Numbered from the stretch's first letter, positions 6,868 to 26,074 are shown. The stretch is DNA of 32,000 nucleotides from Candidatus Saccharimonadota bacterium (GCA_041661045.1 JBAZVE010000001.1:960001-992000), one strand, 5' to 3'. Program-made: numbers and translations. Notes: generated by a model not told the origin, from the letters alone.

Positions 6868-8301
6868 ATGGATGCTCTTATTTCTTCCCCCGCGATTTCG
6901 GCACAGAAATCGGTGAGGGCGCTTGTGCGAGAACATGCATACACCCAGTTTCCCCGTAACAATGTGAGCAAGCTCATGATTATGGAATTGGTTGAAGAGT
7001 ATGGTGTTCAGTTTGTGGATATGCAGTTCACGGATATGGACGGAGTGCTCAAGGCCGTGACGCTCCCGGTTCACAAGTTGGAGGATGCCCTGGATAACAA
7101 TGTGTGGTTCGACGGATCTTCCATCAGTGGGTTTACCGCCATCACGGAATCCGACATGATGCTGAAACCGGATTTGGATACTTTTTCAATTTTGCCTTGG
7201 ACGGTGGGCAACGAAGACCCCACCGCTCGATTGATTTGTGATGTATTGAATCCTGATGGCAGCCCTTTTGAGGGAGACCCTCGTTTCATTTTGCGCAAAC
7301 AGATGGAAGAAGCGGCGAAGCTTGGGCTCAAACCCTTTATGGGGCCTGAATTGGAATTTTTCCTTTTTGAATTGGATGCGGAGGGAAACCCGACGCTCAC
7401 CCCTCACGACAGTGCGGGATATTTTGATCAATACAGTGACAAGGCTTTGGCCTTAAGGAGGGAAATGTCCTTTGCTTTGGACATGATGGGAATTGAAATT
7501 GAACGGATGCATCACGAAGTGGCGGCGGGGCAAAGTGAAATCAACTTTAAATACTCGGATTCCTTGCACACTGCGGACAATGCCCTCACCTTTAAATTTA
7601 CGCTCAAGGCTTTGGCCAAAAAACACGGACTCCATGCTTCCTTTATGCCCAAGCCGATTTTCGGGATCAATGGCAGTGGTATGCATGTGCATCAGTCGCT
7701 TTCCTCCATTACGGATGGGGCGAATCAATTTTATGATGAAAAGGGGAAGTATGGACTCTCCGCCCTTGCTCAGAGTTACATTGCCGGGCAGCTCCAGCAC
7801 ATTCGAGCGATGAATGCGGTGATGAATCCCATTGTGAATTCCTACAAACGATTGGTGGTGGGCTATGAGGCGCCGGTGAATGCTGCGTGGGGACAAAGGA
7901 ACCGATCCGCTTTGATTCGTGTTCCCCGAGTGAGCCCTGCGGTGGCCAGCAAAGGCGCGCGGATTGAGCTTCGTTGTCCGGACCCTGCTTCCAACCCTTA
8001 CTTGGCCTTTGCGGTGATGCTTGCGGCGGGGCTGGATGGAATTAAAAAAGGTTTGGTGGCGCCCGCTCCGGTGGAAGAAAATATTTGGGAGCTGGATTCC
8101 AAACAAATGAAAAAAATGGGCATCAGCACCGTGGCTGGCACGCTTAAGGAAGCCTTGGATGCACTCGAAAAAGACGAAGTGATTCGCGCTGCGCTGGGGG
8201 AGAGCACTTTTGAAAAATTCCATGCCTCAAAAACCGCAGAGTGGGAATCTTTCCGCACCAGCGTTTCTCAATGGGAAACCGATCGGTATTTGGACTGCTA
8301 G
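6868..8301 (+). CDS. glnA: Glutamine synthetase, type I (alpha-like)
   Basis: VQFVDMQFTDMDGVLK N-domain, then FMPKP...GSGMHVHQSL and NRSALIRVP motifs. At the position of the E. coli adenylylation loop NLYDLP this protein reads NIWELD (Trp, not Tyr). The first ~35 aa have no GS counterpart, so alternative starts GTG 6964, ATG 6976 or ATG 6982 are possible. Confidence 0.95.
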   Translation: MDALISSPAISAQKSVRALVREHAYTQFPRNNVSKLMIMELVEEYGVQFVDMQFTDMDGVLKAVTLPVHKLEDALDNNVWFDGSSISGFTAITESDMMLKPDLDTFSILPWTVGNEDPTARLICDVLNPDGSPFEGDPRFILRKQMEEAAKLGLKPFMGPELEFFLFELDAEGNPTLTPHDSAGYFDQYSDKALALRREMSFALDMMGIEIERMHHEVAAGQSEINFKYSDSLHTADNALTFKFTLKALAKKHGLHASFMPKPIFGINGSGMHVHQSLSSITDGANQFYDEKGKYGLSALAQSYIAGQLQHIRAMNAVMNPIVNSYKRLVVGYEAPVNAAWGQRNRSALIRVPRVSPAVASKGARIELRCPDPASNPYLAFAVMLAAGLDGIKKGLVAPAPVEENIWELDSKQMKKMGISTVAGTLKEALDALEKDEVIRAALGESTFEKFHASKTAEWESFRTSVSQWETDRYLDC

Positions 8302-9269
8302 GCTCTGAGTAAAATTCGTTCAATGGCCAGTAAGTACTGGTCCTCCTCACGGGGTTTCAATGGAATGAGCCCCGTTTTGAGGCGATGGTCCAATTCCATG
8401 AACTTTTTCAAGAAATACCGTAGCTGTTCGAAGGTGAAGTTTTTGGTGAAACGCAGACTGCTGCTCACCACAAAGGGGTGAACTCCCATTTTGCGGGCCA
8501 TCATGGGTGCCGGCAGGTTTTGTTCACTCAGCGCTTTCATCTCTAAGATCAAACGGATTTGTCGCACAATCATTGAGAAAATAAAGGCTGGATCTTCTCC
8601 TTGTGCCTTCAGGTCTTCCATGGTTTTGAGTACCCCGGCAAAGTTTTTTTGAGCCAGTTGATCGGTGAGGGTGAAGATGGATTTTTGTACGATCCCCGTC
8701 ACTAGCTCATCCACCATTTCTCGTAGAATGGGTTCCCCCCGTGCGTAGAGGGTGAGTTTTTGAATTTCTTGATCCAAGGCAAAGAGATCATCGCCCACGG
8801 CACTCACCAGGTAACTTGCGGTTTCCGGATTGATGCGGGCTCCGGCCTGCTCCGCGCGGCGCTGTACCCAGGTGCTCAGTTGGACTCCCTTGGGTTTGAG
8901 GAACAGGCGTTTGGTGGCCAAAATATTGAGTCGTTTGAAAATGCTTGTTCGTTCATCGGGTTTGCTCTCTTCCACCATCACCAGCACGGTGCTTTCGGGC
9001 AGTTTTTCCAGTGCGGGGAGCAGGGTATTGGCGGTTTCCGCCTTTTGACTGCCCAGGAAATTTTTAAGCACGACCAGCCGTTTTTCAGATAAAAATGGAC
9101 GAGTTGAGATTGAGCTAATAATTTGTTCAACGCTTGTGTTTGAACCGTCCAATTCCTCCCAATCGCTTTCCCCAAATTTACTGACGAAGGCGTCTTTCCA
9201 TCGGGTGAGTTCTTGCCGCATGGAGAAGTGGTCTTCTCCAGACATCAAATAGAGATTGGGGCTTTCCAT
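8298..9269 (-). CDS. holA: DNA polymerase III subunit delta
   Basis: 323 aa. N-terminus NLYLMSGEDHFSMRQEL...FGESDWEELDG and overall length and helical C-terminus fit HolA. The ATG is 4 nt after the stop of the 1605-aa gene. Its stop shares a CTAG tetranucleotide with the convergent glnA stop. Confidence 0.85.
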   Translation of the reverse strand: MESPNLYLMSGEDHFSMRQELTRWKDAFVSKFGESDWEELDGSNTSVEQIISSISTRPFLSEKRLVVLKNFLGSQKAETANTLLPALEKLPESTVLVMVEESKPDERTSIFKRLNILATKRLFLKPKGVQLSTWVQRRAEQAGARINPETASYLVSAVGDDLFALDQEIQKLTLYARGEPILREMVDELVTGIVQKSIFTLTDQLAQKNFAGVLKTMEDLKAQGEDPAFIFSMIVRQIRLILEMKALSEQNLPAPMMARKMGVHPFVVSSSLRFTKNFTFEQLRYFLKKFMELDHRLKTGLIPLKPREEDQYLLAIERILLRA

Positions 9270-9273
9270 GGCC

Positions 9274-12200
9274 CTAATTTACTCCTTTTTCTGTGTTGAT
9301 GTCCACATACTCGGAGAGTGCGGGAGGAGTGTTCAAAAGGATGCGGCTGTCGTAACGAATCACGATTCCTCCACCATCAATGGTGGGAGGGCCTACATAT
9401 TTTGCCTTTTGAATCAGAGTTTGAACATTTCCGTAGAAAGATCCGTCCACGGTGAGCTGTTCATCCACCGCGCTGCGTTCGTCCCCATCAAACTTTTGAT
9501 CGGTGTAGTAGACTCCAACCAATTTTTGAGCACCGTCTTCGATGTAAATATCTCCACCCAGGACCACAAAGGCAACGGAGGGGAGATTTTTGTAATCGCC
9601 CGGGTTGCTCACGGTAGCATATTGAATGTTTTTGGTGAGGCGCAAATCGGCATTTTTAACAATGATGGTCCACGCTCCGGAGGGAACGGTGAGCCCACCC
9701 AAGGTCATGGCAGGGTCTGCCTCATTGCTGAGACTTCCATCAAAATACAAGATATTGCTGCTGCTGTTGTTGTTGTTGGTCAGGGCTTTTTCCATCTGTT
9801 CCCATGAGTCATAGGTGCTCACGGATGCCATTTGACTGGTGTCGGCATTACGAGTGGCTTGGCTGATCATGTTGCTGGTGGTGGTTTCCACCGTAGAGCT
9901 GGCCCACAGGTCACTGACCTTGGCCACGATTTCACACACAAAGGAACTCAAATTTCCGACAATACTGTTGGAATCGTCATCGTCACAGAAAGAAACGGTG
10001 GCGAGTGAATAAGTGGAAACAGTGCTGGCGCTGTCTTCGTCATCGTCATCCTCCGTGGGTTCGGTATCTTCCAAGATGATCAAGGCGTCCACATTGCGGT
10101 AATCGCTGCTGGTGGCTTCATCCTCTTCCACGAAGATACAAGAGATGTCGGAACCTCCTTCCAGGGAGACTTCCAGGTACACATCGCCGGCGTTTTGGGT
10201 CATGAGGTAAGAACAGAGCACCACCAATTTTGCTTCGGCGGTGAGTTCTTCCGTATCGTCAAAGACTTCTACGGAAGCATTGTTCTCAAACTCTTCAGTC
10301 AAACATTCGTCTGAGCTGTCTCCACAGTTGAGACCGGAAGTGATGACTCCCACATAACGAATACGGATCACCGCTTCATCTCCATAATCTTCTACAACCG
10401 TTCCGGTGTTCTCAATCACAATATCTTCGGTACTGGTTGGGGAGTGATCAGGGTCGTAACAGACTTCTTCTGTTTCCAAGTTTCCTTCTTCATCATAATC
10501 ACATTCTTCAATGCGAACGGATTCTTCCCCGGGCATTTTGATGTAGGGGAGGTAGGCCATGAAGTTGTTCCGGAATTCTTCGGAGTCTACAAATGCCGCA
10601 AGATCATCGGAGTTTTCTTCTTGTTCATCTCCAAATCCCATCATGGTGATCAAGTTGTAGTCATAAGTGGCTCCACTGGTTCCTTCCACAAGTTCACTGT
10701 AGCTGGTGGCCAGGCGGATGTTTCCACCGGAGTCGCTACCATCTCCTTTGTGTCCTTCCAAAGTGCTGCCCCACATTTCATCGGTGAAGGTGATGGCGTC
10801 TTCATCTCCGCTGGGTTCGTAGGCCAAGGTGTAGAAGGCTCGATCTTCATCGTGGGAGAAGAAGACTCCTTCATCGCTGTAGGAATTTTTCTCGGAAGAG
10901 AAGTTGAAGGTATAAATGAATTTTTCAAAGGATCCCACTTCTTTTTCTTCGGGAGCTTCCGTGATGTTGAGGTCTTCACACACGATATTGTCTTCGAGGA
11001 CTTCAATCTCAGCGCCTTCACAAACCTCTTCAAACGAAACTTCTTCACACACTTGGTCTTCGCCTTCGTCGAATTCAAAGACCATTTCTTCACACTCTCT
11101 ATCGCCTTCGGCGGTTTCGTAACACACTTCAATCACGCGTTCATCGTCTCCGTTTTCGTCACGATCCACACAGATTTCGGTTTCGATGTCTTCACAAGTG
11201 AGGTCGACTTCAAAATCGGTATCGGTGAAATCAATGTCTTCACACACATTTTCAGGAGTTGGAGTGGGGGTTGGGCTTAGGCTGTAGTCATCGCTACATT
11301 CACCGGCTTCTCCTCGAATGTAAGCTTCAATGTCGGCATCGTCTCCGGAATAAGAGTAGCTCACGGTGCTGCTGGTTCCCGAAACGGGGATTTCCAAGTG
11401 TCCGTCGCTGTAACCGGAGGAACTGCCATCACTATAATAGAGTTGGCCGTTGCCGTCTTCGGTGATGACGAGTGTTCCCGTCCAATCGCTGTCGCTTCCT
11501 TGTACGGTTACGGTCTCGGTGTCTTCATTAAGATCAAGGTCGACACAGTAGAGTCCCTCGGGAGGAGTTTGGTCGATGCTAAACGCATCGGCACACGCCT
11601 CGGAGTCGCTCACAATGTAAGAGTTCACGGTGTCCCCGGCATCTCCATTGCGGTAGAAAACAATCACAGTATCATCGGTTCCAAAAACAGGAATTTCCAG
11701 GTGGCCGTCTCCATATTCGGAGGGACTTCCATCGGTGTAGAACAAGGCTCCACTTCCGCTGCGGTTCACCACCAGAGTTCCAGCCCATCCTGGGGCACTG
11801 GCTTCCACGGCAATGGTCACGGCAATGATTCCGGCATCCTCATCTTCGGCCGACATGGTATAAGAGTCGGGATCCATTTGAAGATCGATACAGAATGGGG
11901 CTTCATCTGGAGGAGGAGGCAGGGTCACTTCTTGTGAACAAACGGCCTCTTCTCCAATCATGGAAACGGAAAGTACATTTTTGGCTTCAAAGTTTTCCCA
12001 ACAAATGATTCCGGCGTAGCTGGCGGCTCCACTGAGTCCCATGCTTACGGGGTTGCCGTATTCATTTCTCAAGGTGCTGAGTTCCAGCACGCTCAAGTTC
12101 CCGCTGTAGGCGGTTTCGCTCGGATCGGTGAAACCTTCCACAAGGAGGGTTCCGCTGTAGCTTGCGTCCGAAACGGCCAAGGCAAAATTCCAACATACGG

Positions 12201-14091
12201 TGCTTTCTTCGTAGAGCAGAGCCAAATCTTCTTCATCACTCAGATCGATTGGGGTGGTGCTTCCATCGTCATTATTGATGTAAGGACCGGAGAGGGTGAG
12301 GTCTTCACACACAGGGTTTGGTCCTTCACAAGTTTCACTTTCAATAGTATCTGAACAATACGGTTGATTGATGTCCACGATTTCAATGGTGTCTCCGGGT
12401 TCTCCGGTGTAATACACCACTTTGATGGCAGAGATGTAAAATCCGGTTCCCAAAGAGGGACCTCCGGCACTGCGGCTGAATTCTCCGTTGGGATTGCTGC
12501 TGGTGAGGCGCCAAGGTCCGGGAGTTTCTGTCCCGTCGGTCATGGTGCTTTCCCAACGAATCTCAATGCCACCTTCGGTCATTTCCTCACAGGTGAGGGT
12601 ATGATCGGGTACTCTGACTTCCAAAGATTCGCACACGGGTTTTTGGGGAGTGAGGACATAGGTGAAACCTGTTCGGCACACTCCGGCCACATCATTTTCA
12701 GCTTCTACAAGCACGCTACCGGTTTCATCACTCTGGAAGGAGTCGATGGTCCAGTCGGTGGTGGTGTAAGGAGTGGTGTCCCCATCAAATGTGGCATCCG
12801 TGTCGGTAGCGGAATAGGTCAAATCATAAGGCCAAGGATGGCCGTTGGAGGCCACGGCTTCCACTTCAATGGGAAGGTCCACTTCAGTTTCATCCACGGT
12901 AAAGAGCAGAGTTTCCGGGTCCAAAAGCAAGAGATCGCTACAGTAAGGGAATTCCACTTCGGCTTCACAGAGTCCGGTGCCTTCGTAGCTCACGCCCAAA
13001 TAATCACTCACAAAAGCGGTAAAGCGGTCTCCAGGCATGGAGTCGCGGTATTCCACCTCTGTATCGCCCGTTTCTACGGGTCCGGCATTCCCATTTAAAA
13101 TATTGAGCGAGCCGCCGTAACGGATGTCTCCGCTGGCCGCCGCGCCGTCATAATTATAAGCCTGATAAGTGACATCCACCTCATCGGTGATGACGGTTCC
13201 GTCATTGGCATAAACCGTTGCTTCAAAATCCGTATCACTAAACACATTGTCGAGTCCCACACTGCCCGGATTCAAAACAAGTTTGGAACAAGTGAGCTCC
13301 TCTTCGGTGGGGGGACAAGCGGGAAAATTGGTCACCGCCGTTCCATTGAGCCCGTACCAAAAAATATGATCTTCATCGGGATCCACTTCCTCGATATAAG
13401 AGTCAACTTCTTCTGGATAGGTTTGGTGCCAATTGCTTTCGATGCTGTGCTCAGCGTCCGGATCGATGTAGTAAAACTCCGGTTTCGTCCAACTGGTGGT
13501 GGTGACAATTTGGTCGGTGTCGTAATCCAAGAGCTCGAAAGAAATGCCTTCTATAAAATAATCTCCGCTGGGAAGCCAAGGTTTAAGGTCAATATCTTCA
13601 GGGTCCTCTCTGCCATATTCCCAGAGCAGTCCTTTGGGATTTCCTTCAATCCAGTTTAGGACTTGATAAGTTACGGTGATTCCGTTCCATTCGCCGCCAT
13701 AAACCGTATGAATGACTTCGCCCAAATCTGCTTCTTTATCAAAATTACAGGTTCTGTAGGTTCCGCTTCCATCTGTGCACAGGAAATTGGTGTCGGTGTC
13801 TACCGTTTCCAAAAAATCATCCTCAAACACAATGGCAAAACTGTGGATCACCTCCCAGAATTCTTGTGTGTCTGTATCGGTTGAAGTGTGATAGTGGGTA
13901 TGCTCGTGGGTTGCTCCTACGCAGTAACGGTCTCCTTCATCGTAGCCTCCCTCTGCGACAGCTGGAACCTCATAAGCATCTTCATTGCCTTCCGTGGCTC
14001 GGTCGCCTACAGTCATTAAAGCAAAAGCTTGGATGGGCCAAGCGAGGAGAATGCCGAGAGCGAGGGTGAAAAGGGGGGCGAATTTTTTCAT
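9274..14091 (-). CDS. Giant secreted hyperacidic Cys-rich modular protein, unknown family
   Basis: 1605 aa. Sec-type signal peptide MKKFAPLFTLALGILLAWPIQAFA. 36 Cys by my count, and D/E far exceed K/R (aa 951-1050 are 43/100 D+E by hand count). About eight Cys-delimited modules of ~90-140 aa. The C-terminal ~150 aa are non-acidic. No LPXTG, C-terminal TM, RTX or other signature that I recognise. Confidence 0.9.
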   Translation of the reverse strand: MKKFAPLFTLALGILLAWPIQAFALMTVGDRATEGNEDAYEVPAVAEGGYDEGDRYCVGATHEHTHYHTSTDTDTQEFWEVIHSFAIVFEDDFLETVDTDTNFLCTDGSGTYRTCNFDKEADLGEVIHTVYGGEWNGITVTYQVLNWIEGNPKGLLWEYGREDPEDIDLKPWLPSGDYFIEGISFELLDYDTDQIVTTTSWTKPEFYYIDPDAEHSIESNWHQTYPEEVDSYIEEVDPDEDHIFWYGLNGTAVTNFPACPPTEEELTCSKLVLNPGSVGLDNVFSDTDFEATVYANDGTVITDEVDVTYQAYNYDGAAASGDIRYGGSLNILNGNAGPVETGDTEVEYRDSMPGDRFTAFVSDYLGVSYEGTGLCEAEVEFPYCSDLLLLDPETLLFTVDETEVDLPIEVEAVASNGHPWPYDLTYSATDTDATFDGDTTPYTTTDWTIDSFQSDETGSVLVEAENDVAGVCRTGFTYVLTPQKPVCESLEVRVPDHTLTCEEMTEGGIEIRWESTMTDGTETPGPWRLTSSNPNGEFSRSAGGPSLGTGFYISAIKVVYYTGEPGDTIEIVDINQPYCSDTIESETCEGPNPVCEDLTLSGPYINNDDGSTTPIDLSDEEDLALLYEESTVCWNFALAVSDASYSGTLLVEGFTDPSETAYSGNLSVLELSTLRNEYGNPVSMGLSGAASYAGIICWENFEAKNVLSVSMIGEEAVCSQEVTLPPPPDEAPFCIDLQMDPDSYTMSAEDEDAGIIAVTIAVEASAPGWAGTLVVNRSGSGALFYTDGSPSEYGDGHLEIPVFGTDDTVIVFYRNGDAGDTVNSYIVSDSEACADAFSIDQTPPEGLYCVDLDLNEDTETVTVQGSDSDWTGTLVITEDGNGQLYYSDGSSSGYSDGHLEIPVSGTSSTVSYSYSGDDADIEAYIRGEAGECSDDYSLSPTPTPTPENVCEDIDFTDTDFEVDLTCEDIETEICVDRDENGDDERVIEVCYETAEGDRECEEMVFEFDEGEDQVCEEVSFEEVCEGAEIEVLEDNIVCEDLNITEAPEEKEVGSFEKFIYTFNFSSEKNSYSDEGVFFSHDEDRAFYTLAYEPSGDEDAITFTDEMWGSTLEGHKGDGSDSGGNIRLATSYSELVEGTSGATYDYNLITMMGFGDEQEENSDDLAAFVDSEEFRNNFMAYLPYIKMPGEESVRIEECDYDEEGNLETEEVCYDPDHSPTSTEDIVIENTGTVVEDYGDEAVIRIRYVGVITSGLNCGDSSDECLTEEFENNASVEVFDDTEELTAEAKLVVLCSYLMTQNAGDVYLEVSLEGGSDISCIFVEEDEATSSDYRNVDALIILEDTEPTEDDDDEDSASTVSTYSLATVSFCDDDDSNSIVGNLSSFVCEIVAKVSDLWASSTVETTTSNMISQATRNADTSQMASVSTYDSWEQMEKALTNNNNSSSNILYFDGSLSNEADPAMTLGGLTVPSGAWTIIVKNADLRLTKNIQYATVSNPGDYKNLPSVAFVVLGGDIYIEDGAQKLVGVYYTDQKFDGDERSAVDEQLTVDGSFYGNVQTLIQKAKYVGPPTIDGGGIVIRYDSRILLNTPPALSEYVDINTEKGVN
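11245..11892 (-). repeat. Tandem duplication of a ~100-115-aa module inside the 1605-aa protein (aa 734-848 and 849-949)
   Basis: The two copies align as WAGTLVVNRSGSGALFYTDGSPSEYGDGHLEIPVFGTDDTVIVFYRNGDAGDTVNSYIVSDSEACADAFSI versus WTGTLVITEDGNGQLYYSDGSSSGYSDGHLEIPVSGTSSTVSYSYSGDDADIEAYIRGEAGECSDDYSL. Both copies start with C-[IV]-D-L. The copies are diverged at the DNA level. Confidence 0.8.
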
Positions 14092-14103: not shown

Positions 14104-14256
14104 TTATTGCATTGGAGACTCCTGTCCGCCGGGTTCCATTTGGATTGAGCTTCCTTCTTGGACAGGGTTGTATTTGATATTTTCAACCTGTTCTTGTGTC
14201 CCACACGCAGTGAGCAGGAGAGACAGGCTTGACATTATAATAAAAATTGTTCTCAT
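14104..14256 (-). CDS. 50-aa lipoprotein (unannotated small ORF between the two giant genes)
   Basis: Hand translation of the minus strand gives MRTIFIIMSSLSLLLTACGTQEQVENIKYNPVQEGSSIQMEPGGQESPMQ*, with ATG 14256 and TAA 14106-14104. Hydrophobic signal plus lipobox LTAC. It fills the gap between the giants, 20 nt after the upstream stop and 12 nt before the downstream ATG. It falls below the track's length cutoff. Confidence 0.5.
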   Translation of the reverse strand: MRTIFIIMSSLSLLLTACGTQEQVENIKYNPVQEGSSIQMEPGGQESPMQ

Positions 14257-14276
14257 AGTCAATGGGTGAATGGTTA

Positions 14277-17200
14277 TTATCGTGGGGAGTTTTGTCCTCC
14301 TTGTGGGGTAATGGTGTGGTCCCCTGGATTGTTTTGTGGCAATTCGTCTGGACTACCCCAAAGATTTGGCTTGTCTTGCCCAGGCAACGGAGGAATGAAT
14401 CCTCCGCCTGGCACAATAGGAATGACTCCTGGGCTCACGCGCAAGGTGGTGTAGTCTACGCCTATTTCCGGGCGAACTTCTTGAGTGAGCGCTTGCCGTG
14501 TGGCGGCGACTTTGACTTCTTTGGGCTGGGTGAGTGTGTAATCGATTTCCACATTGCGGGCCACTGTGAGGTTTTCACACTTGCCATAGAGACAAACAAA
14601 GAATTCTTCGGTTAAAGTTACTGGATTTCCACGGACCATGCTTTGACCATCTTTGAGTAGTTTAAGAACATCTTGAGTGAACTCTTGGGCGAGCTCCGGG
14701 TGAGTTGGCACTCCTGTTTCCACCATTTGCTTGATGTCTCTGCCATCTTCTGGTCCATACAGTTTGTCTGCAATTTGAGCCAGACGAAGGCCGGCCATGT
14801 CCTTTCGAATGTCTTTAAACGAGGCATTTGCTGGAAGCTTTTTCCATTCCGATAAGCCTTTTATGCTTTGTGCGGCTGGGTCGTCCTTTTCAGCGTACAT
14901 CGCGCCATTCATTCCCCCGTGGATATTGAAGTCGTAGTAACCTTGTAAAAGTTTTCGAGTTCCGCTGTCGTCGATGGCAATGAGGAATTCGCTGCCTTCG
15001 GGGAGAGAACTTACGGTATTTGCATTTGCTTGAAGAGATTCTATGACTCTTGCTCCATCTTCTTCACCAAATATTGCCTGCGCAGCCTCGGTATTCCATT
15101 TCCATGGGATCTCTTTTGCGTCAGGTCGGCCGATTTGCATGGCGTATTGGTGAGCCAAGAGGATTTGTTGATCTGTGGGTTCCGTGACGCCGATGTTTTT
15201 GTATCGTTCTGTGATCAGTGAATCGATAGTGTCGCGGTTGGCTGCAACGGCCAAATGGTCGTAATCCATTTTGTCTGTTTTTACGAGTTGTTCAGCTACG
15301 GCCTTAGCGTCTTCGTGGTCATCATGGGTGAGACCTTCAAAGAGTTTGACCTCGCGAACGCCTTCTTGCATGCGAACGGTTTCCCATTCTACTTCGCGTG
15401 CGTTTTGTTTGGCGCCTTCGAGGCTGAGGTCGCCCAAGACGAGTCCATTGTCTTTTGCTTCGACATCAGTGCGAGTCAGGATATTCTCTCTTAAAAGTGG
15501 ATTTTCTACTTTGTCGTTCTTCAGAAGTCGAGTGTCGGTGGTGCCGTCTTTGGTTTGAATCCATTCCATATAACTGGGACTTTGAGACATGATCTGCTCG
15601 ATGGTGGTGTTTTCATCGCTCGTGAGTCCCACGAAGAACAGTTTTTTCCCAGTGTAAGGATCGGTGGTTTCAAGAGTGCGGAGGAGCAAGGCATCGCCAC
15701 TGTCCAAGTTGAGGAGAGGCGCTCCGCCGTCTCCATCTTGAATGGCTTCTATGTCGCTCATTGCATCAGGGTAGAAGCGCACCATTCCATCGATATTTTG
15801 GAGGGTCAACTGAGTGAATTTTCCGTTGAAGGTGAGCACGGCTTGACCTTTGAGTTTTTCGTTCATTGCGGCCAAGGCCTTGCTCGCGTTTGCAATAGCT
15901 TCGGCTTCGGCATTGGCTTTGTCACCATCATTTTCGTAAAGGAATTCATCTTTGAGCTCAATGGGTTCCCAATCGGGTTGAACTTCTTTGTAGTCTACTG
16001 GCAAGGCGACGGGTAGGCCGCTCTTCATGGAATCGCTGACCATGTCCGGAGTTTCCAATAGGGCGGGAATGTACCGTGTTACGGGACGGAAGCCCACGCC
16101 AAAGGTGATGTAGGCACCCAGGGCGAAGCCACCCTCTTTGAGACCGACTGCGGCGGTGGGCCCGGCGCTGATGTATTTGATTTGTTTGCTCCATTTGCTG
16201 AAGTCTTTGGTTTCTCCGTAGGCGATTCGGTAATTTACATAGGATTCCCATTCGGCCTTGAGGGCCTTTTTCATGGGGTCTTCAACATGCTCAAGATCAT
16301 CTATTTGTGCATAAATTTCGGTTCGAATAGTCTCCAATTCTTCTTTATGTGTTTCTTTAAACTCGCGGATTCTTTTTTGTAAAACTTTATCGAGATTGCG
16401 ATCGAGGCTTAGCGGATGAAATCCTGCAACATCCCCGCTTTTACTGAGGCCCAGATTTGCTCCCGTGCCAAGCGATAGCGTTCCGGATTCATTGAGGTCG
16501 CGACTGATGCCAAGCCCAAAGGTTGGCCCAATCAATCCTTGAGGATCGCTGAGTCCGGCGCTGAGGCGGGCATAAGCTTCCAAGTGAGTGCGGCCTTTTT
16601 TACCCAAGTCTATTTGGTAGATCAGACCTCCGTGCATTCGGAGCACAGGCAGGACAGTTCCTGCAGAAACGGTCCATTGCAAACTGAGTCGCCCTGGGAA
16701 ATCCTTATTAAGGAGAGGGATGAGTGCGCCGGCTTCCAGTGCGGCCATGGCGTGTACTTCTTCGCCGGGTTGAATGGCGGCCAATCCGCTGAGCACTCCT
16801 TGAATGTGTCCGCCTAAGTCTTCTTTAAGGGCCTTTTCTTGTTCGTCGGTGAGGGTTCCTGCGGGAATTTGTGCGGTAAGCTCATCCACCATTCCGTTTG
16901 TTGCGGTGTTTACATCTGCAGTGATTTCTTCCGCTTCAATATTTTGCAGCACTCGCATTTCGGCGGCGGCAAAGGCCATGGCTCCGTAACGGATGGCGGC
17001 AATTTGATCTTTGCTGAGGGTGAATGTGGGATCGTTGAGATTCTCTAGTGTGATGGGGGCTACACTCACCGCTTTTCCATATCCCAAATGGTTTTTTTCG
17101 CCGTTGATCTTGTTTTGACCATGAATTAAATAAGTGTTGAGGGTTTCCAGGTAACTGGCCCCATTTTCGTGGTTCATCAATTTATCAAAGGCACGGGCGT

Positions 17201-18593
17201 GAGAAATGACTTGCTGTTCGCCATAACTTTTGTAGCCTTTGCTGACGCGTTGGCGAGCAGTACTCATCCAGTTGTCTGCGTTCACCGTCGGACGGTCTTT
17301 GCCCGAAAGTGTGAAGGCGATGGCTTGAAAGACATTGTATGAAATGCTGGGCCCCTGGCTGTTGCGATCAAAAACTTCTCCAGTGAGGCGGAACATGGCG
17401 GCTTTTTCTCCGGTGAGACCTTCGTAAGCGGCCTCTCGCTGTGTTTTTGCCTCCTTCTCTATCCTTATTTTTTCGGCGTCTTCTTGGGCGGAGGGAAGTT
17501 CATTTATTAAAGTCTGTACGGCGGCAAAAAATTTTTCTAAGTGAGGAGTGTTGGCTTCCAATTGATCTTCATTTTTCCCATACACGGCTTTTGCGATTTC
17601 GTTGGAATTGATTTCAAAACGACCTCCCTTAGAAAGAATGCCTCCGTGGAGTGCTTTCCATGTCATGCGGGTGTCGATGAGGCCCACTTGGTCGCGATGA
17701 ATGGCAGCCATCATGCGGAGCGCATTGTAAATGGCTTCTCCACTCTCAAGATCTTTAATGGTCTCGATGTGTTCAAAAGAATTTTCTCCACGGAAAAGCT
17801 CCGGAATTTCTACGCTTGTTCCCGGAAAGCTGACCAGAGTCAGTTCGCTTTGTGCAGGTAGTGCGACCGCTTCGGGAGTTTCTGTATCTTCGGAGGCTGC
17901 GGCAGCCGCTTTTTCTCTAGCAATTTCGTCTTCAACCATAGCTTTTTCATCATCCGTGAAGTGGGTGGAGGGGGTTTCTTCCGGTTCTTCCTCCGGCCCT
18001 TCCCACTCTGATTCAGCAAAGTCTGTTGAAAGTCCCGCAGCCTCTGGTGTCACGGTTACTGGGCCATCTGCCCCATCGAAGGTGATGGGTTCTTGAGCCA
18101 CTTGAGCGGTGCTTGGAATAACTCTTGTTGTGCTCCTTAGGCTGGCTTCAAAGCTTTGCTGATCCAGCGGTGCTGCTTGAGGTACGGGACGCACTAAGTT
18201 TTTGTCTCTTAGGGCGATGTGTTGGTTCAATTGGGTTTGACGGAAGGTGAAGAGGTCTCGCACTTCTTTTTGAGAAAGTGCAAAGTCCTGAATCCTCTCA
18301 AAAAACCTTTCCAGCGCTTCTTTATAACTTTTTGGGCTGAGGATATCCTTTAAGTCTTGAATACGCTTCAGCTCGTTTAGGATCCGATCTAGATTCTCCA
18401 AAAGCACTGCAGCATCGGCGGGGCTGGCTTTATCAATCAATTTGTTTAAATGGCGAACACTTTCCGGAAGGAGAAATTCGGCTTTTTCCACCTGGTCTCT
18501 GACTTCATGAAGTTCGTTTTTGATTGGAGCTTGCTCCGACTGATGAAGTGCCATACGGGTGGGTTTTATTTTTGTTTTAAATCTATTAATCAT
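14277..18593 (-). CDS. Giant protein (1438 aa) without signal peptide, unknown family
   Basis: Long ORF with an ATG start (alternative ATG at 18554). N-terminal ~130 aa look helical or coiled-coil, followed by an acidic linker (EWEGPEEEPEETP...). Gly-rich amphipathic beta-like segments lie mid-protein, and the tail is Pro/Gly-rich. Only 2 Cys. No TM, signal peptide or catalytic motif that I recognise. Confidence 0.85.
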   Translation of the reverse strand: MINRFKTKIKPTRMALHQSEQAPIKNELHEVRDQVEKAEFLLPESVRHLNKLIDKASPADAAVLLENLDRILNELKRIQDLKDILSPKSYKEALERFFERIQDFALSQKEVRDLFTFRQTQLNQHIALRDKNLVRPVPQAAPLDQQSFEASLRSTTRVIPSTAQVAQEPITFDGADGPVTVTPEAAGLSTDFAESEWEGPEEEPEETPSTHFTDDEKAMVEDEIAREKAAAAASEDTETPEAVALPAQSELTLVSFPGTSVEIPELFRGENSFEHIETIKDLESGEAIYNALRMMAAIHRDQVGLIDTRMTWKALHGGILSKGGRFEINSNEIAKAVYGKNEDQLEANTPHLEKFFAAVQTLINELPSAQEDAEKIRIEKEAKTQREAAYEGLTGEKAAMFRLTGEVFDRNSQGPSISYNVFQAIAFTLSGKDRPTVNADNWMSTARQRVSKGYKSYGEQQVISHARAFDKLMNHENGASYLETLNTYLIHGQNKINGEKNHLGYGKAVSVAPITLENLNDPTFTLSKDQIAAIRYGAMAFAAAEMRVLQNIEAEEITADVNTATNGMVDELTAQIPAGTLTDEQEKALKEDLGGHIQGVLSGLAAIQPGEEVHAMAALEAGALIPLLNKDFPGRLSLQWTVSAGTVLPVLRMHGGLIYQIDLGKKGRTHLEAYARLSAGLSDPQGLIGPTFGLGISRDLNESGTLSLGTGANLGLSKSGDVAGFHPLSLDRNLDKVLQKRIREFKETHKEELETIRTEIYAQIDDLEHVEDPMKKALKAEWESYVNYRIAYGETKDFSKWSKQIKYISAGPTAAVGLKEGGFALGAYITFGVGFRPVTRYIPALLETPDMVSDSMKSGLPVALPVDYKEVQPDWEPIELKDEFLYENDGDKANAEAEAIANASKALAAMNEKLKGQAVLTFNGKFTQLTLQNIDGMVRFYPDAMSDIEAIQDGDGGAPLLNLDSGDALLLRTLETTDPYTGKKLFFVGLTSDENTTIEQIMSQSPSYMEWIQTKDGTTDTRLLKNDKVENPLLRENILTRTDVEAKDNGLVLGDLSLEGAKQNAREVEWETVRMQEGVREVKLFEGLTHDDHEDAKAVAEQLVKTDKMDYDHLAVAANRDTIDSLITERYKNIGVTEPTDQQILLAHQYAMQIGRPDAKEIPWKWNTEAAQAIFGEEDGARVIESLQANANTVSSLPEGSEFLIAIDDSGTRKLLQGYYDFNIHGGMNGAMYAEKDDPAAQSIKGLSEWKKLPANASFKDIRKDMAGLRLAQIADKLYGPEDGRDIKQMVETGVPTHPELAQEFTQDVLKLLKDGQSMVRGNPVTLTEEFFVCLYGKCENLTVARNVEIDYTLTQPKEVKVAATRQALTQEVRPEIGVDYTTLRVSPGVIPIVPGGGFIPPLPGQDKPNLWGSPDELPQNNPGDHTITPQGGQNSPR

Positions 18594-18661
18594 ATCACAA
18601 AATCAGGATGGCCGCAAGAGTCTTCGCTTGGCAATTTTTAAGGTTGAGGCAAGATAGTGGT

Positions 18662-19330
18662 ATGGCGCTACAGACTCCCATCCTCATCACCAATTTTAAA
18701 TCGTACCAAGAGTCCACGGGCCCACGGGCGGTGGAGCTGGCCAAGTTGCATGAACGAGTGGCGAACGAGCTTGGGGTGAACACCGCGATTGTGGGGATGT
18801 TTTTGGATTTGCCCATGCTGGCCTCGTGCGTCAGCATTCCGGTTTTGGCTCCGCATTTGGATGGAGTGGGTTATGGGGCTTATACAGGGCTTATTCCGGT
18901 GGAAGTGGCGCGAGGAGTGGGGATTGACGGGGCGATGCTGAATCATTCGGAGCGACGGATTTCCGATTCGGAGATTGCGCGAGCTTTGGAACGGATGAAG
19001 GCGCTCAATATGCTCTCGCTGGTTTGCGCGGAGAGCTTGGAGGAAGGGAAGAAATTTGCGGATATGGGGGCGGATTTTGTGGCGATTGAAGTGCCGGAAT
19101 TGATTGGAGGAGAGGTTTCTGTTTCGGTGGCCAGGCCGGAGTTGATTACGGAGGCGGTGGCTAAAATAGGAGCCGGAAAAGTGATTGTGGGAGCGGGAAT
19201 AAAGACGGCGGACGATGTGCGCATTGCGCTGAGTCTGGGGGCGGTGGGAGTTTTGGTGTCCAGCGGGGTAGTGAAAGCCGCGGATCCTTTGGCGAAATTG
19301 CGTGAATTGTGCGGAGCTTTGCGGGCGTAA
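18662..19330 (+). CDS. tpiA: Triosephosphate isomerase, archaeal type (~222 aa)
   Basis: ILITNFKSY (catalytic Lys), MLNHSERR (His) and AIEVPELIGG (Glu). Short length and overall collinearity with archaeal TIMs such as Pyrococcus (from memory). The ORF extends to ATG 18608, but that extension has no TIM counterpart. Confidence 0.9.
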   Translation: MALQTPILITNFKSYQESTGPRAVELAKLHERVANELGVNTAIVGMFLDLPMLASCVSIPVLAPHLDGVGYGAYTGLIPVEVARGVGIDGAMLNHSERRISDSEIARALERMKALNMLSLVCAESLEEGKKFADMGADFVAIEVPELIGGEVSVSVARPELITEAVAKIGAGKVIVGAGIKTADDVRIALSLGAVGVLVSSGVVKAADPLAKLRELCGALRA

Positions 19331-19351: not shown

Positions 19352-20578
19352 ATGTTTAAAGTTCCCGGTGGACTTTTTCCTCGCTTGATTGCATTCTTCC
19401 CTCTGCTTTTTCCATTGTATTTTTTTAGGGGAACTTTGCTTGGCGTGCCGGTGTCCTTGCCGGAGTTGGTGCTTGGAATCTTGTTTGTGCTTTTCCTTTT
19501 GCAGGGGTATGAATTTCGTTTAAGAGACTGGAAGCTTTGGCCGGTACTCCTGTTTTTGCTGGCGGCGGGCCTGAGCATCGCGGTGGTTTTTGTGGGAGAT
19601 GGAAGTGGGGAGCTCCCCCGCATGGTGGATGGAACGGAATTCCCCGCCAAGATGAAGGCGCTGGGCATTTTAAAGGGATGGATTGTGGCGCCGGTGCTTT
19701 ATTTTGTGATGGCTCGCACGATTTTTAGGGAAAAACCTTCGATGATGTTCTGGGCCCTCCGGGCGCTGGTGCTCAGCGGAGCGGTTTTATCGGTTTTGGC
19801 CTTGGTCCAAGTGGTGACGGGAGATTTTTTAACCCCGGATATGCGCGCCTCCGGGCCTTTTGAATCGGCCAATTATTTGGCGCTTTATCTGGGGCCTTTG
19901 GTGGTTTTTGCGGGCTTGGCTGCCGTGGAAAGTGATTCAAAAGGCGATAGGATTTTCTTGGGGATTTGCGCCGTACTTGGCGCCGCCGCGCTGTTTTTTT
20001 CCAAATCCTACGCGGGGTGGATTGCGGTGGCCGGTGCCGGGTCTTTGGGTCTTTTGCTTCTGGCGCGGCGGCGCAGCAGAAAATCGTTTTGGATTGCATT
20101 CGCCGCTTTGTTTGGACTTGGATTGGTTCTTTTGCTTTCTCAGCTCGGTACCGATAAATTCGCTCAATTTGTGGACTTTGCCGGACGCTCTTCTTCCAGC
20201 GTTCGCCTCCAAATTTATGAAATTTCCACCGCCTTGATCGCCGATCATCCGCTTTTGGGCATTGGTATGGGGCAGTTTGAACAACAGTATCAGGAGGTGG
20301 CTGAGGTGGTTTTGGGCTCCGCTCCTTTTGAGTGGAACATGCTGCACCCCCACAATATTTTATTGGCCTTTTGGCTCAATATGGGTCTACTCGGCCTTGG
20401 CGCTTTTGTTTGGCTCTGTGGCAGGGCTCTTTTGTGGCTCACCGAACGCGATAAAAAAGAACGGCACCTCGTGGCCCTGATGCTGGTGACCCTGCTCATC
20501 CATGGTCTTTTCGACACCCCTTACTTCAAAAACGACCTGGCTTTTCAGTTCTGGCTCTTCATGGCAATGCTGCTTTAA
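19352..20578 (+). CDS. O-antigen ligase-like (Wzy_C domain) polytopic membrane protein
   Basis: More than 10 predicted TM helices. A periplasmic-loop-type motif RLQIYEISTALIADHPLLGIGMGQF is followed by HPHNILLAFWLNMGLLGL, as in WaaL/PglL/Wzy_C proteins. A GTG at 19331 is an alternative start. Confidence 0.75.
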   Translation: MFKVPGGLFPRLIAFFPLLFPLYFFRGTLLGVPVSLPELVLGILFVLFLLQGYEFRLRDWKLWPVLLFLLAAGLSIAVVFVGDGSGELPRMVDGTEFPAKMKALGILKGWIVAPVLYFVMARTIFREKPSMMFWALRALVLSGAVLSVLALVQVVTGDFLTPDMRASGPFESANYLALYLGPLVVFAGLAAVESDSKGDRIFLGICAVLGAAALFFSKSYAGWIAVAGAGSLGLLLLARRRSRKSFWIAFAALFGLGLVLLLSQLGTDKFAQFVDFAGRSSSSVRLQIYEISTALIADHPLLGIGMGQFEQQYQEVAEVVLGSAPFEWNMLHPHNILLAFWLNMGLLGLGAFVWLCGRALLWLTERDKKERHLVALMLVTLLIHGLFDTPYFKNDLAFQFWLFMAMLL

Positions 20579-20615: not shown

Positions 20616-20990
20616 TTACTCCTTTTGTTTATGGACTAAATACTGAGATACAAACCAAATTTGACCATCGATAGTAACAGGCCAAAAGCTGCCAATGTGT
20701 GGGAAATCAACCCCGGTAGCTGCTTCCATCATTAATGTGTCAGGCACAATAACCCTTTGATTCGTCTCTAGTACACCTTGTACCCTACCCCTTCCTGTTT
20801 CTATGAGCACTGCTATTCCTTTTTTTAATTCATGAGCAGCTGCTGCGTCTTGATACTTGGGATCATTATAAGTGGCTGCCATTACTTCTGGATCCACACT
20901 CGTCAGGCCTGTGAGAGTCAAAAAAGAACACACCTTTCTTTTGCTTGGAATTTCAATGACATCACCACCTGTTTCTATACCTTTTCCCAT
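20616..20990 (-). CDS. Hypothetical protein (orphan, lower-GC patch)
   Basis: 124-aa ORF with ATG start and no recognisable motif. GC is visibly lower than in the neighbouring ligase-like gene. A promoter-like motif lies upstream. Confidence 0.5.
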   Translation of the reverse strand: MGKGIETGGDVIEIPSKRKVCSFLTLTGLTSVDPEVMAATYNDPKYQDAAAAHELKKGIAVLIETGRGRVQGVLETNQRVIVPDTLMMEAATGVDFPHIGSFWPVTIDGQIWFVSQYLVHKQKE

Positions 20991-21102: not shown

Positions 21103-21984
21103 TTAGACCTCCCTCCGTTTCTCTTGCACCTTTAGATTGATCGCATGCGCAATGGCATGGTGGTCTTTGCAGAGTGGGGCCAGGTAATGAGGATCATGCG
21201 CGTGGCTCAGTGCGAAGGTTTGGGTGTGGTGGACTTGCTCCGCCGGCTTTCTACAGCTTGGGATTGAGCACTTACTGCCGTGCTCTTGATCTAAAACCTT
21301 CTTGGTGCGGGCGGGAATATGACGAGATTGTGTCGGCTCCAGGCCTTCGCTTATGGCCACTTTCTCTTCAGCGATCTCTTGGTCCCGTTTATCAAGGAGA
21401 TCCGTAAGGATTTCATCCACATTGAGGCCTTTTTCTTGTAAGGTCAGGAGTCTTTTTGTAAGCTCCGTGCTGAGCCGAAGGTCTTGCGCGCGCAAGGATT
21501 TTGCCTCAAATAATGGCTGTAGTAAGCCATTTCTATTTTGGTCGGCTGCCTGTTCAGCCATGATTTTCTGATCCCGTACCAAAGTCTCCACTGCACTTTG
21601 AGAAAGATTTTGAACCGCTTCGGCCCATTCTTCTTCATTCTCAGTGCTTGCCACGGAGGCCACCCTTGCAAGCTTGTTCACGCTTACACTTCCCTCCACC
21701 AAGAGGGCCCTCAAAGCGGGTTTATCTGAAAAACATTTCTCAAGATTCAGGGCGGTTCTTACTTGCTGTTCACTCAGTCCCGCAAGTTTAAATGCACATT
21801 CAAAAATGGATCCGAATCCTTTCCTTTCATACAAACGGCGACGGTTGAGTTCGGGGAGAAGTCCTATAAACTTATGCCTCCATTCCAGGGCGTTTCTTCC
21901 ATAAAGTCGTGCCTTTTCGTACAGTTCCCCGTCTGTGAGGCGAGTCGAATAGTCAGGCGTGGATGTCAAAGAATTGGGGGTCAT
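21103..21984 (-). CDS. HNH endonuclease domain protein (DUF222-like N-terminal region)
   Basis: C-terminal HNH/zinc-ribbon pattern CSIPSCRKPAEQVHHTQTF...LAPLCKDHHAIAH. The N-terminal helical region RRRLYERKGFGSIFECAFKLAGLSEQQ is typical of this family. The ORF extends to a GTG at 22026; I prefer ATG 21984. Confidence 0.85.
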   Translation of the reverse strand: MTPNSLTSTPDYSTRLTDGELYEKARLYGRNALEWRHKFIGLLPELNRRRLYERKGFGSIFECAFKLAGLSEQQVRTALNLEKCFSDKPALRALLVEGSVSVNKLARVASVASTENEEEWAEAVQNLSQSAVETLVRDQKIMAEQAADQNRNGLLQPLFEAKSLRAQDLRLSTELTKRLLTLQEKGLNVDEILTDLLDKRDQEIAEEKVAISEGLEPTQSRHIPARTKKVLDQEHGSKCSIPSCRKPAEQVHHTQTFALSHAHDPHYLAPLCKDHHAIAHAINLKVQEKRREV

Positions 21985-22128
21985 ATTTGTAGGGTTAATG
22001 AACCTTAATTCTAAACCAAAATCCACCTCATTAACAGGTTAAAAGCATCCTTTTGAGTGGCACTCAGTCAAGAATATGGTATGGTGAATGTGTGCTCACC
22101 CTTGTGCGCCACATTCTAGTAAAACCCA

Positions 22129-25006: not shown

Positions 25007-26074
25007 ATGTCTAGTCCTAATCCTGACAAAGCTTTAACCCTTTTTACTGGGGAACTCAGTTCCGGTGGGACTTCTTTTGAAGATCAGATTAGGGCTATTC
25101 AAGGTCTAAGTTTTATTGAGAGGTCTCGCTTGGGCTTCAATCTCTCTCAGGATGTTATTTTACCAACAACGGAGTCATTGCGACTGGCTTTGACAGAAAC
25201 GAGTGGAGCCTTGTCTGAACTGAGGCGCACTCATAGCTCCTTATCTCCTACACCTTCATATCATGGAGCTCCATCAGCTAAATTTGATCCTGTCTTTTCT
25301 TGTCTATTAAAAGGGAGAGAGGTCCAGGTTAGCCTTGAGGACAATCGTATGCTGCACAATGTTGAAGGTGGGCCACCCGTTGTTACACAGAAAAAGGAGT
25401 GGGATCCGTTTGTCCACAAACATGTTTTTAAGGATGTTGGAGTAAAGGCCCCCCTGGTTTGTGTTGAGGAAAAGGGTTGGACCTTACGGTGGGATGATGT
25501 TCAAGCAGCAGAGTCGTCTGGCGACGACGGTTATGCCCTTGCGGTGCCTTCTTTGAGACAGTTGCGAGTGGCTCGCACGACCTATCCGAGCCTGGCCTGC
25601 CCCGATTTTCCCTCCCCCGATTTTTATCCTTTTTATTCGCGAGGACCGCAAGGAATGGATCCTACTACTTTTGGAGAGCGAGCTGTATCTGCGGGTCCCT
25701 ACTTTGAGGATACTGTTCGCTTCAGTGGCCCACGCAATGGCGCTACCCTTGCATGGAAGCTGTATCACAGCCCCTCCTTGGATAATCTTTTTGGGAAATA
25801 TATAGAACCCTTCACTGGACATTCCTGTGCTTCTCTTGCAGAGTGGCGTGTGAATTCGTCCGTTCCAGGAAGCGAGCATTATAGGCCGTTGACCGAGCTG
25901 TTTGGGCCCACATCGATACCAGACTTGCTTACGATCAATAGCTTTCTTCAAGAACTTCGAGGGCTTATTCAACTTATTAATGGTGATCTGATCCCTCAAA
26001 TAAAGGAGAAGAACTTGGGTATGATCATGAATGCTTCTGCGCAGGCTCTCGGAGGTAAAGGTGGTCTTTTCTGA
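25007..26074 (+). CDS. Hypothetical protein (355-aa orphan)
   Basis: ATG start, with no signal peptide, TM or motif that I recognise. Pro/Ser-rich stretches are present (SLSPTPSYHGAPS, CPDFPSPDFYPFYS). Codon style differs from neighbours (frequent AGG, CTA, TTA, AGT). It has its own strong promoter-like element. Confidence 0.6.
   Translation: MSSPNPDKALTLFTGELSSGGTSFEDQIRAIQGLSFIERSRLGFNLSQDVILPTTESLRLALTETSGALSELRRTHSSLSPTPSYHGAPSAKFDPVFSCLLKGREVQVSLEDNRMLHNVEGGPPVVTQKKEWDPFVHKHVFKDVGVKAPLVCVEEKGWTLRWDDVQAAESSGDDGYALAVPSLRQLRVARTTYPSLACPDFPSPDFYPFYSRGPQGMDPTTFGERAVSAGPYFEDTVRFSGPRNGATLAWKLYHSPSLDNLFGKYIEPFTGHSCASLAEWRVNSSVPGSEHYRPLTELFGPTSIPDLLTINSFLQELRGLIQLINGDLIPQIKEKNLGMIMNASAQALGGKGGLF

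Follow-up and report, generated by a model that had tools for sequence, protein, structure and literature searches.

A 1438-residue protein encoded in a 32,000-nucleotide stretch of DNA from Candidatus Saccharimonadota bacterium (GCA_041661045.1 JBAZVE010000001.1:960001-992000; hereafter the window) founds an un-annotated family that is restricted to Peregrinibacteria, within the Candidate Phyla Radiation (CPR/Patescibacteria). Its gene, which we call the target, belongs to a fixed three-gene cassette in which every member is unannotated. Both the family and the cassette lie outside every described kind. Each of the nearest resemblances fails at least one of the defining features that we tested. 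The reading that we tentatively favor is that the target belongs to an envelope or surface apparatus peculiar to its lineage, exported without Sec or associated with the surface, and probably contacting partner cells.

The open reading frame (ORF) starts with ATG and has 1438 codons plus a stop. Its position and length, as given in an earlier first-pass annotation made from the DNA alone, were reproduced on the minus strand at window 14277-18593, and both peptides quoted there, LNKLIDKASPADAAVLLENLDRILNELKRIQDLKDIL (aa 49-85) and FFVCLYGKCENL (aa 1331-1342), were found in the translation. The product is an acidic, multi-domain protein of about 157 kDa with an isoelectric point (pI) of 4.9, the family ranging from 4.7 to 5.7. 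A public gene call (P0001) places the start at Met14 and yields 1425 aa. Most family members start M-A-[ILV]-x-C-[FRN]-[KN]-x-x-F-x-[DNE]-P-F, and the window copy, MINRFKTKIKPT, is a degenerate form of this motif that aligns with the N-terminus of P0021, MAIRFKNFENENPF (M-A-I-R-F-K...P). Because Met1 aligns with the motif as it appears in P0021, we favor it over Met14, a start that would match the 'MALH' of some relatives; the conserved N-terminal motif thus supports Met1 as the likely start.

When a hidden Markov model (HMM) profile of aa 262-1392 was searched exhaustively against 1.84 billion cluster representatives at a cutoff of E<=0.001, it returned 27 proteins, which are the window's own and 26 relatives; 26 of the 27 scored at E<1e-10. 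About 20 members are full length (1300-1740 aa) and share a common architecture. A word-index homologue search recovered only four relatives, at 35-38% identity, and querying with a 24-sequence alignment added none. The only matches in GTDB, with one genome per species, were a 'Candidatus Peribacteria' metagenome-assembled genome and 'Candidatus Peregrinibacteria bacterium RIFCSPLOWO2_01_FULL_48_20'. Two relatives carry a taxonomic label, in both cases Peregrinibacteria/Peribacteria, and four further loci were recovered from metagenomes. No relatives of the target were present among IMG/VR viral contigs, INPHARED phages or PLSDB plasmids, and on this ground an origin from a mobile element was rejected.

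The target is a real gene under purifying selection. Between the L001 and L006 orthologues, which share 74% amino-acid identity, dN/dS is 0.13, a rough value given that dS is near saturation in this pair. Every computable 100-codon block gave a ratio below 0.3 except the tail (0.41), with dS saturated in two N-terminal blocks.

As the first-pass annotation had held, the protein has no recognisable domain: it matched nothing in Pfam, NCBIfam, PHROGs, PADLOC or PDB sequences, the last of these searched with the single sequence, a 5-sequence profile and a 24-sequence profile. PDB sequence matches to gasdermin (E=0.72), internalin B (E=0.14) and MAD1 (E=0.44) were dismissed as chance. When 24 family members were compared with Pfam at E<=0.01 and at E<=10, they shared no family and gave scattered single matches only, among them a very weak one to Phage_GPD in 1 of the 24 (E=0.0035). 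Strong homology to a known enzyme or structural family was likewise absent from the sequence, profile and Foldseek searches taken together. Only two positions of the 24-sequence alignment are invariant, both of them Gly. Gly, Ala, Pro and aromatic residues make up most of the nearly invariant ones, to which C1339 and N1341 also belong, and the alignment contains no constellation of catalytic-type residues. From this pattern we argue for a structural role, and the idea of an enzyme function was dropped on the same ground.

Downstream genes could be read in ten distinct loci: the window, L001, L002, L005, L008, L009, L010/L011, L012/L013, L014 and the P0020 contig. In 10 of 10 the order is tpiA (divergent), target, usually a small ORF, giant ORF (1021-1755 aa) and holA, the small ORF itself being present in 11 of the 12 distinct loci that span its gap (the window included) and absent only in L009. 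The target was never found without its giant neighbour, which answers a question the first-pass annotation had raised, and its position as first gene of the cassette was confirmed, with divergent tpiA upstream and the target, small ORF, neighbour and holA all co-directional. This order holds even for family members 17-19% identical to the window target. Synteny extends further, to glnA, trmB and gatA on one side and to wzy, murF, truB, mraY and dnaG on the other.

At this fixed site the target diverges rapidly. The flanking proteins TIM, GlnA, MurF, TrmB and HolA keep 70-87% identity between genomes whose targets share only 34-42% and whose giant neighbours share about 54% (Table 1; HolA of L001, L005 and L008 is 74-77% identical to that of the window). 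In global pairwise comparisons, 88% identity in HolA goes with 44-55% in the target and 64-71% in the neighbour, and the target diverges at about twice the rate of this secreted neighbour.

Table 1. Percent identity of proteins from syntenic loci to their counterparts in the window (nd, below tblastn detection at 1e-3; -, gene outside the locus)
Locus	TIM	GlnA	MurF	TrmB	Target	Neighbour
L001	82	86	82	87	38	54
L005	81	80	81	82	39	55
L008	83	-	81	-	42	54
L010	83	74	72	82	nd	43

The L010 target (8011-13221) is 33% identical to that of distant L012 (10001-15076) and only 26-27% identical to those of L001, L005 and L008. HolA of L010 gives the reverse order, with 50% identity to L012 and 70-71% to L001, L005 and L008. 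This incongruence suggests either deep allelic types or exchange of the cassette through its conserved flanks. Exchangeable cassettes of surface antigens typically diverge in this way, as do loci exposed at the surface (S-layer, adhesin, O-antigen) and conflict systems; for an internal scaffold it is unusual.

A second property of the target is its low cysteine content. The first-pass annotation had contrasted its two cysteines (C1334 and C1339) with 36 in the downstream 1605-aa neighbour, and both counts stand. For Peribacteria proteomes a mean Cys content of 1.67% has been published (PMC4736985). In the target family the mean is 0.20%, compared with 0.77% across the other proteins of the window, and the chance of two or fewer Cys in 1438 residues is P about 0.001. 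Cysteine depletion is usual for S-layer proteins, flagellins, substrates that are secreted unfolded (types 1, 3 and 5) and outer membrane protein (OMP) barrels, and by that analogy it leans toward an extracytoplasmic role.

The structure of aa 246-1438 was predicted by AF2 with the 24-sequence alignment (mean predicted local distance difference test score, pLDDT, 69); this run replaced one with 5 sequences, in which pLDDT was 44 and the Foldseek matches were meaningless. The model contains a predicted barrel made of eight strands of 11-13 residues with short turns (598-733) followed by three more (805-842). A Foldseek check, which the first-pass annotation had proposed, gave no significant match (best E 0.065 in PDB and 0.036 in BFVD). 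The top PDB matches were almost all transmembrane beta-barrels: FimD, BamA, porins, OmpG, NanC and EspP. KdgM matched with probability 0.99, a TM score of 0.52 and a root-mean-square deviation of 3.1 Å over 121 columns, and the designed 10-strand barrel TMB10 with probability 0.98. The BFVD matches, also sub-significant, were porin/OMP-like phage proteins.

The columns of the 24 sequences show strict dyad alternation in all 11 barrel strands, with one face of hydrophobic Leu, Val, Ala, Ile and Phe and the other of Gly, polar or charged residues. Consensus aromatics lie at strand ends (W669, W706, Y659, Y698, Y828, Y841, F663 and F835). Gly makes up 16.4% of the region, and charged residues are scarcer there than in the other domains. 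When a profile of the barrel only was compared with PDB, 13 of its 17 sub-threshold matches were beta-barrels, the best being 'Bam G' (E=0.04), the designed TMB2.3 (0.34) and the EspP beta-domain (0.37-0.76). Thus two independent lines, the fold matches and the barrel-region profile, each of them non-significant, agree on an OMP-like barrel, which we predict with moderate confidence. Neither the target nor the 24 members matched an OMP family in Pfam, and AsmA, TamB and bridge-like lipid-transfer proteins gave no Pfam match in the 24 members and no structure among the Foldseek matches.

The predicted barrel resembles the small OMP barrels (KdgM/NanC, OmpG, EspP, TMB10/TMB2.3) in its meander, dyad alternation and strand-end aromatics. 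It differs from them in that no signal peptide and no significant score were found here, and in that it is internal to a 1438-aa protein and split by a charged helical hairpin of 66 aa.

The remainder of the domain layout, also predicted with moderate confidence, is given in Table 2. The first-pass annotation had described a helical N-terminus of about 130 aa; helix formers are indeed abundant in aa 29-131, which contain 0 Gly and 3 Pro, so the region is helix-prone by composition. It had also described an acidic Pro/Glu linker at aa 190-245, of which the acidic part stands (15 of 56 residues are Glu, or 27%, and 5 are Asp) and the Pro-rich part applies only mildly (4 Pro, 7%). In 20 of the 24 members the N-terminal helical region is followed by a beta-type module of about 105 aa with the consensus ...DFxDP..G.VN.FA...TLG...AYLW.DG.TY...YV.I..G; P0025 carries it twice, and it is missing from the window protein. 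At the position where this module sits in relatives, the window protein has an unrelated low-complexity acidic stretch (aa 132-245; 17859-18200, minus strand). The helical domain at aa 246-597 includes the best-conserved blocks of the family, YxAxRMMAAIHR, NEIAKAVYG and ISHARAFDKLM. All family members end in a disordered tail of 30-70 residues after a conserved [VL]IP[IV] motif.

The first-pass annotation had reported no export signal, and our measurements agree. The N-terminus is hydrophilic (maximum 10-residue hydropathy in the first 50 aa, 0.48) and the 19-residue Kyte-Doolittle maximum over the whole protein is 1.16; with hydropathy low throughout, the target has no Sec/Tat-type signal and no transmembrane helix. 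Of the 23 other family members, 22 are likewise non-hydrophobic at the N-terminus. P0017 alone (L014 330-4421), a divergent member without the N-terminal motif and helical region, is weakly signal-peptide-like, starting MGNFEQFGRNLTLLAGLSLGQPSLA followed by KP and reaching a 10-residue hydropathy of 1.85. If this stretch of P0017 is a real signal peptide, an extracytoplasmic location for the body of the family would gain support.

Known secretion routes were compared one by one. No WXG100/LXG domain was matched in Pfam by the target or the 24 members, even at E<=10, and no EssC/EccC-type genes occur in the 32-kb window or the syntenic loci. The target and the 24 members gave no Pfam match to HemolysinCabind or related families of RTX nonapeptide repeats, to the SLH domain or to the EAGR box. 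The C-terminal tail, which is disordered, acidic and Gly/Pro-rich, is compatible with a type 1 signal but unspecific, and no exporter of the ABC/membrane fusion protein (MFP) type is encoded in the window. Prepilin-like processing was rejected, since the G-F of the N-terminal motif is not followed by a hydrophobic helix, as was a sortase, PEP-CTERM or other sorting signal after [VL]IP[IV], where there is neither a transmembrane segment nor a basic tail. The N-terminal motif or the C-terminal tail could be a candidate targeting signal, although neither matches a known one.

The first-pass annotation had offered two possibilities, that the protein is secreted by a dedicated route or that it serves as a scaffold inside the cell, and had deemed sequence alone insufficient to choose. 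The missing signal and domain that it reported were borne out, and the evidence leans, tentatively, toward an extracytoplasmic role at the surface. We lean this way because of the fast divergence at a fixed locus, the covariation of the target with its secreted neighbour, the depletion of Cys and the predicted barrel. From these we infer export, membrane insertion, partnership with the neighbouring genes and a role in host contact. The target would exit the cytoplasm by a non-Sec route, with the N-terminal motif or the acidic tail as candidate signal. The Gly-rich barrel would sit in, or line a passage through, a membrane or envelope layer, and the helical and alpha/beta domains would form an exposed, fast-evolving surface. 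The target would work together with the lipoprotein encoded by the small ORF and with the secreted giant, plausibly attaching to a partner cell or exchanging material with it.

Several observations weigh against this reading. The target has no signal peptide, transmembrane helix, sortase motif or known secretion domain, and no secretion machinery is encoded in the 32-kb window. No match of the barrel, whether by structure or by profile, is statistically significant; the barrel has the lowest pLDDT among the folded parts, and the predicted template modeling score (pTM) of the whole model is only 0.37. Glu, Lys and Arg abound in the helical parts, as they do in cytoplasmic scaffolds. Since CPR bacteria are regarded as monoderm, and the Peregrinibacteria lineage is presumed to have neither an outer membrane nor the barrel assembly machinery BAM, an OMP-type barrel would find no obvious home membrane there. 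The whole region is syntenic, so vertical descent by itself could account for the constant adjacency to the neighbour. The co-variation of target and neighbour identities (partial r of 0.70 given HolA) speaks for the reading but is suggestive only, as the pairs are non-independent. The near-saturation of dS noted above likewise tempers the estimate of selection.

Some of these observations would fit a cytoplasmic scaffold that organises or anchors a surface apparatus from within, its barrel being a soluble or domain-buried beta structure. We consider this rather unlikely. In its favor, the protein has no export signal of a known type and no conserved catalytic-type residues, it combines long charged helices with an acidic linker, and its gene directly precedes that of a giant secreted protein in a bacterium that has a reduced genome and probably lives attached to a host. 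A precedent by analogy would be the Mycoplasma pneumoniae proteins HMW1, HMW2 and P65, signal-less cytadherence accessory proteins that support the P1 adhesin. Like these and HMW3, the target is signal-less and large, has acidic low-complexity stretches and stands beside a giant surface protein. Unlike them, it has a predicted barrel and outpaces its secreted partner, and it shows no sequence or domain similarity to them, no EAGR box and no other match to a Mycoplasma family. Further points against a scaffold are a rate of evolution about twice that of the secreted neighbour and the incongruence of allele types, both unusual for an internal scaffold, the Cys depletion relative to the cytoplasmic proteins of the window, and strands in which, as in membrane barrels, one face is polar and Gly-rich and the other hydrophobic and capped by aromatics.

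Less probable again is a lattice-forming coat of the S-layer type, exported by a type-1-like ABC system as for Caulobacter RsaA, with the neighbour and the lipoprotein as anchor or accessory. The acidic pI, near-zero Cys, large size, rapid divergence with cassette-like allelic types at a fixed locus, and disordered acidic Gly-rich C-terminal tail all agree with it, and S-layers have been seen on CPR cells. For Peribacteria, S-layer genes have been reported as well (PMC4736985). The target recalls RsaA in being signal-less, acidic, Cys-poor and large, and the slpA cassette of Clostridioides difficile in having divergent alleles at a fixed site amid conserved flanks. However, it lacks RTX repeats, SLH and other S-layer-associated domains, cell-wall-binding repeats and adjoining ABC/MFP genes, and its helical and charged content is high. 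A further partial likeness is to OmpM/SlpA-type proteins of Negativicutes and Deinococcus-Thermus, which have a signal peptide, an SLH domain, a coiled-coil stalk and a porin barrel. They are large acidic envelope proteins in which a long helical N-terminal part is combined with a beta-barrel, as is predicted for the target. Their barrel, however, is large, C-terminal and set in a true outer membrane, whereas the target has no SLH or porin match.

A bolder version of the favored reading, which we regard as improbable, is that the target is exported by an unrecognised route and its barrel inserted in the envelope of a partner cell or in an unrecognised outer layer, forming an uptake conduit. 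The giant neighbour, Cys-rich and adhesin-like, would dock the conduit together with the lipoprotein, and the conduit would pass host material to a bacterium auxotrophic for lipids and amino acids.

Least probable, and in our view very doubtful, is a role in conflict, as a defence protein against phages or as a polymorphic toxin/effector, with rapid evolution driven by an arms race and not by surface exposure: the target is large, domain-less and hypervariable between close genomes, and one family member has the Phage_GPD match, but the gene occupies the same site in every locus examined and is not sporadic, its divergence covers the whole length and is not focused in a toxin module at the C-terminus, there is no evident immunity-like gene and no PADLOC or PHROGs match, and no homologues were found outside one lineage. 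Nor does the target resemble a phage structural protein (tape measure, fibre or baseplate), with no PHROG match, no significant BFVD match and no relative in IMG/VR or INPHARED. Its context consists of housekeeping genes, not phage genes: the rest of the window encodes ftsX, gatA, glnA, holA, tpiA, a Wzy_C protein, murF, truB, mraY, dnaG and rpoD. No tRNA or Rfam family was detected in the window.

Peregrinibacteria are tiny, host-dependent bacteria. In its evolution the locus has the marks of a module at the cell surface or host interface, and the product of its first gene, which has no known export signal, is predicted to include a membrane-barrel-like domain; the locus offers a clade-wide, testable candidate for the host-contact or uptake machinery of CPR bacteria, the nature of which is a documented open question (PMC11665869). 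Peribacteria genomes, from the same phylum, encode large, strain-variable extracellular proteins without a predicted function, for which a part in attachment has been proposed (Anantharaman et al. 2016, PMC4736985). As far as the passages retrieved from that paper describe the class in Ca. Peribacter riflensis, these proteins are Cys-rich and carry signal peptides; the giant neighbour fits the class in its signal peptide, Cys-richness and acidity, whereas the target is signal-less and Cys-poor. The same passages, found by keyword, mention neither a signal-less family nor the three-gene cassette. If the barrel and export are both true, the simple monoderm picture of Peregrinibacteria would be challenged and a handle on host-contact machinery gained; if the conduit exists, it would be the first molecular candidate for a feeding or contact channel of a CPR epibiont. 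Even a cytoplasmic target would stand for a new family, with proteins of about 1500 residues and several new folds, that is conserved throughout a lineage of class level.

Table 2. Features of the target and of the cassette in the window (domain assignments are predictions)
Feature	Position	Strand	Remarks
Target ORF, 1438 aa	14277..18593	-	founding member of an un-annotated Peregrinibacteria family
Extreme N-terminus, MINRFKTKIKPT, degenerate family motif	18558..18593	-	closest match P0021, MAIRFKNFENENPF
Gly-free helix-prone N-terminal region, aa 29-131	18201..18509	-	family-conserved LNxLIxKA...NLDxAI...
Acidic low-complexity linker, aa 190-245	17859..18026	-	from composition
All-helical domain, aa 246-597	16803..17858	-	pLDDT mostly 60-88
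Gly-rich amphipathic beta-barrel, 10-11 strands, aa 598-733 and 805-842	16068..16802	-	AF2, pLDDT 45-80
Charged helical hairpin inside the barrel, aa 734-799			AF2; about 66 residues, Lys/Glu-rich
Beta-rich domain with one long helix, aa 875-1045	15459..15971	-	pLDDT 80-90
Alpha/beta domain, aa 1090-1315	14649..15326	-	pLDDT 80-90
C-terminal four-strand beta unit, aa 1317-1368	14490..14645	-	pLDDT 80-90; holds both Cys
Disordered Gly/Pro/Asp/Glu-rich tail, from aa 1370	14280..14486	-	follows conserved [VL]IP[IV] motif
Putative sigma-70-like site, TTGACT-17-TATAAT	14234..14262	-	11/12 to consensus; just past target stop, overlaps small-ORF start
Lipoprotein ORF, 50 aa, MRTIFIIMSSLSLLLTA followed by C	14104..14256	-	lipobox LTAC; between target and neighbour
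Giant neighbour, 1605 aa	9274..14091	-	Sec signal peptide; 21% Asp+Glu; 36 Cys; no known domain

The small ORF between the target and the giant neighbour had been missed by the first-pass annotation. The precursor reads MRTIFIIMSSLSLLLTA followed by CGTQEQ..., with a canonical lipobox. Lipobox-bearing equivalents of 44-56 aa occur in L001, L002, L003, L005, L006, L008, L010, L012 and L014, and the lipoboxes across loci are LTAC, ITGC, LSSC, LNAC, IPGC, LAAC and LSAC. On the P0020 contig, the small-ORF position holds a 53-aa gene call and is known as a gene call only. The mature lipopeptide of about 30 aa is acidic, Pro/Gln-rich and weakly conserved. The putative -35 element of the sigma-70-like site lies 1-6 nt upstream of the small-ORF ATG, with the spacer and the -10 element inside the first codons. 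Because the -10 element is inside the coding region, a transcript from this site would miss the ATG, which leaves two options: a fortuitous site, or a small ORF read only from the transcript of the target.

The giant neighbours whose sequences were read, that of the window included, all have a signal peptide, 16-21% Asp+Glu and 22-40 Cys. In 9 orthologues the C-terminal part of about 550 aa is almost invariant and the N-terminal half variable. The window protein matched nothing in Pfam, NCBIfam, PHROGs or PADLOC, the 9 orthologues matched nothing in Pfam or in a PDB profile search, and the neighbour has neither an LPXTG motif nor a transmembrane anchor. It holds internal tandem units of about 95 aa (with GTLVVNRSGSGALFYTDGSPSEYGDGHLEIPV within the unit) and Cys-rich hyperacidic repeats.

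Between the giant gene and holA, a gene of about 285 aa is present in L001 (16493-17344), L005 (20080-20973) and L009 (12168-13031) and absent from the window, L002, L010, L012 and L014; motifs of PP2C/SpoIIE type (DGV..., G[ST]DGL) were seen in it by eye. In L008 the slot is filled by a 275-aa ORF on the opposite strand (19730-20557, minus), with an HNH-like, His/Cys-rich C-terminus by eye, which may be a mobile-element insertion at the edge of the cassette.

On the other side of the target, the tpiA ORF as listed (18608-19330, 240 aa) begins 14 bp from the divergent start of the target. In its product the TIM Pfam match starts at residue 24, and the orthologous proteins measure 221-231 aa. 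Translation of tpiA therefore probably begins some 10-19 codons further downstream, which would leave a short shared promoter region (window 18594-18680). Three ORFs without a Pfam or NCBIfam match lie in the murF-wzy-tpiA neighbourhood, at 20616-20990 (minus), 21103-22026 (minus) and 25007-26074 (plus), and counterparts of similar size were seen in the syntenic loci.

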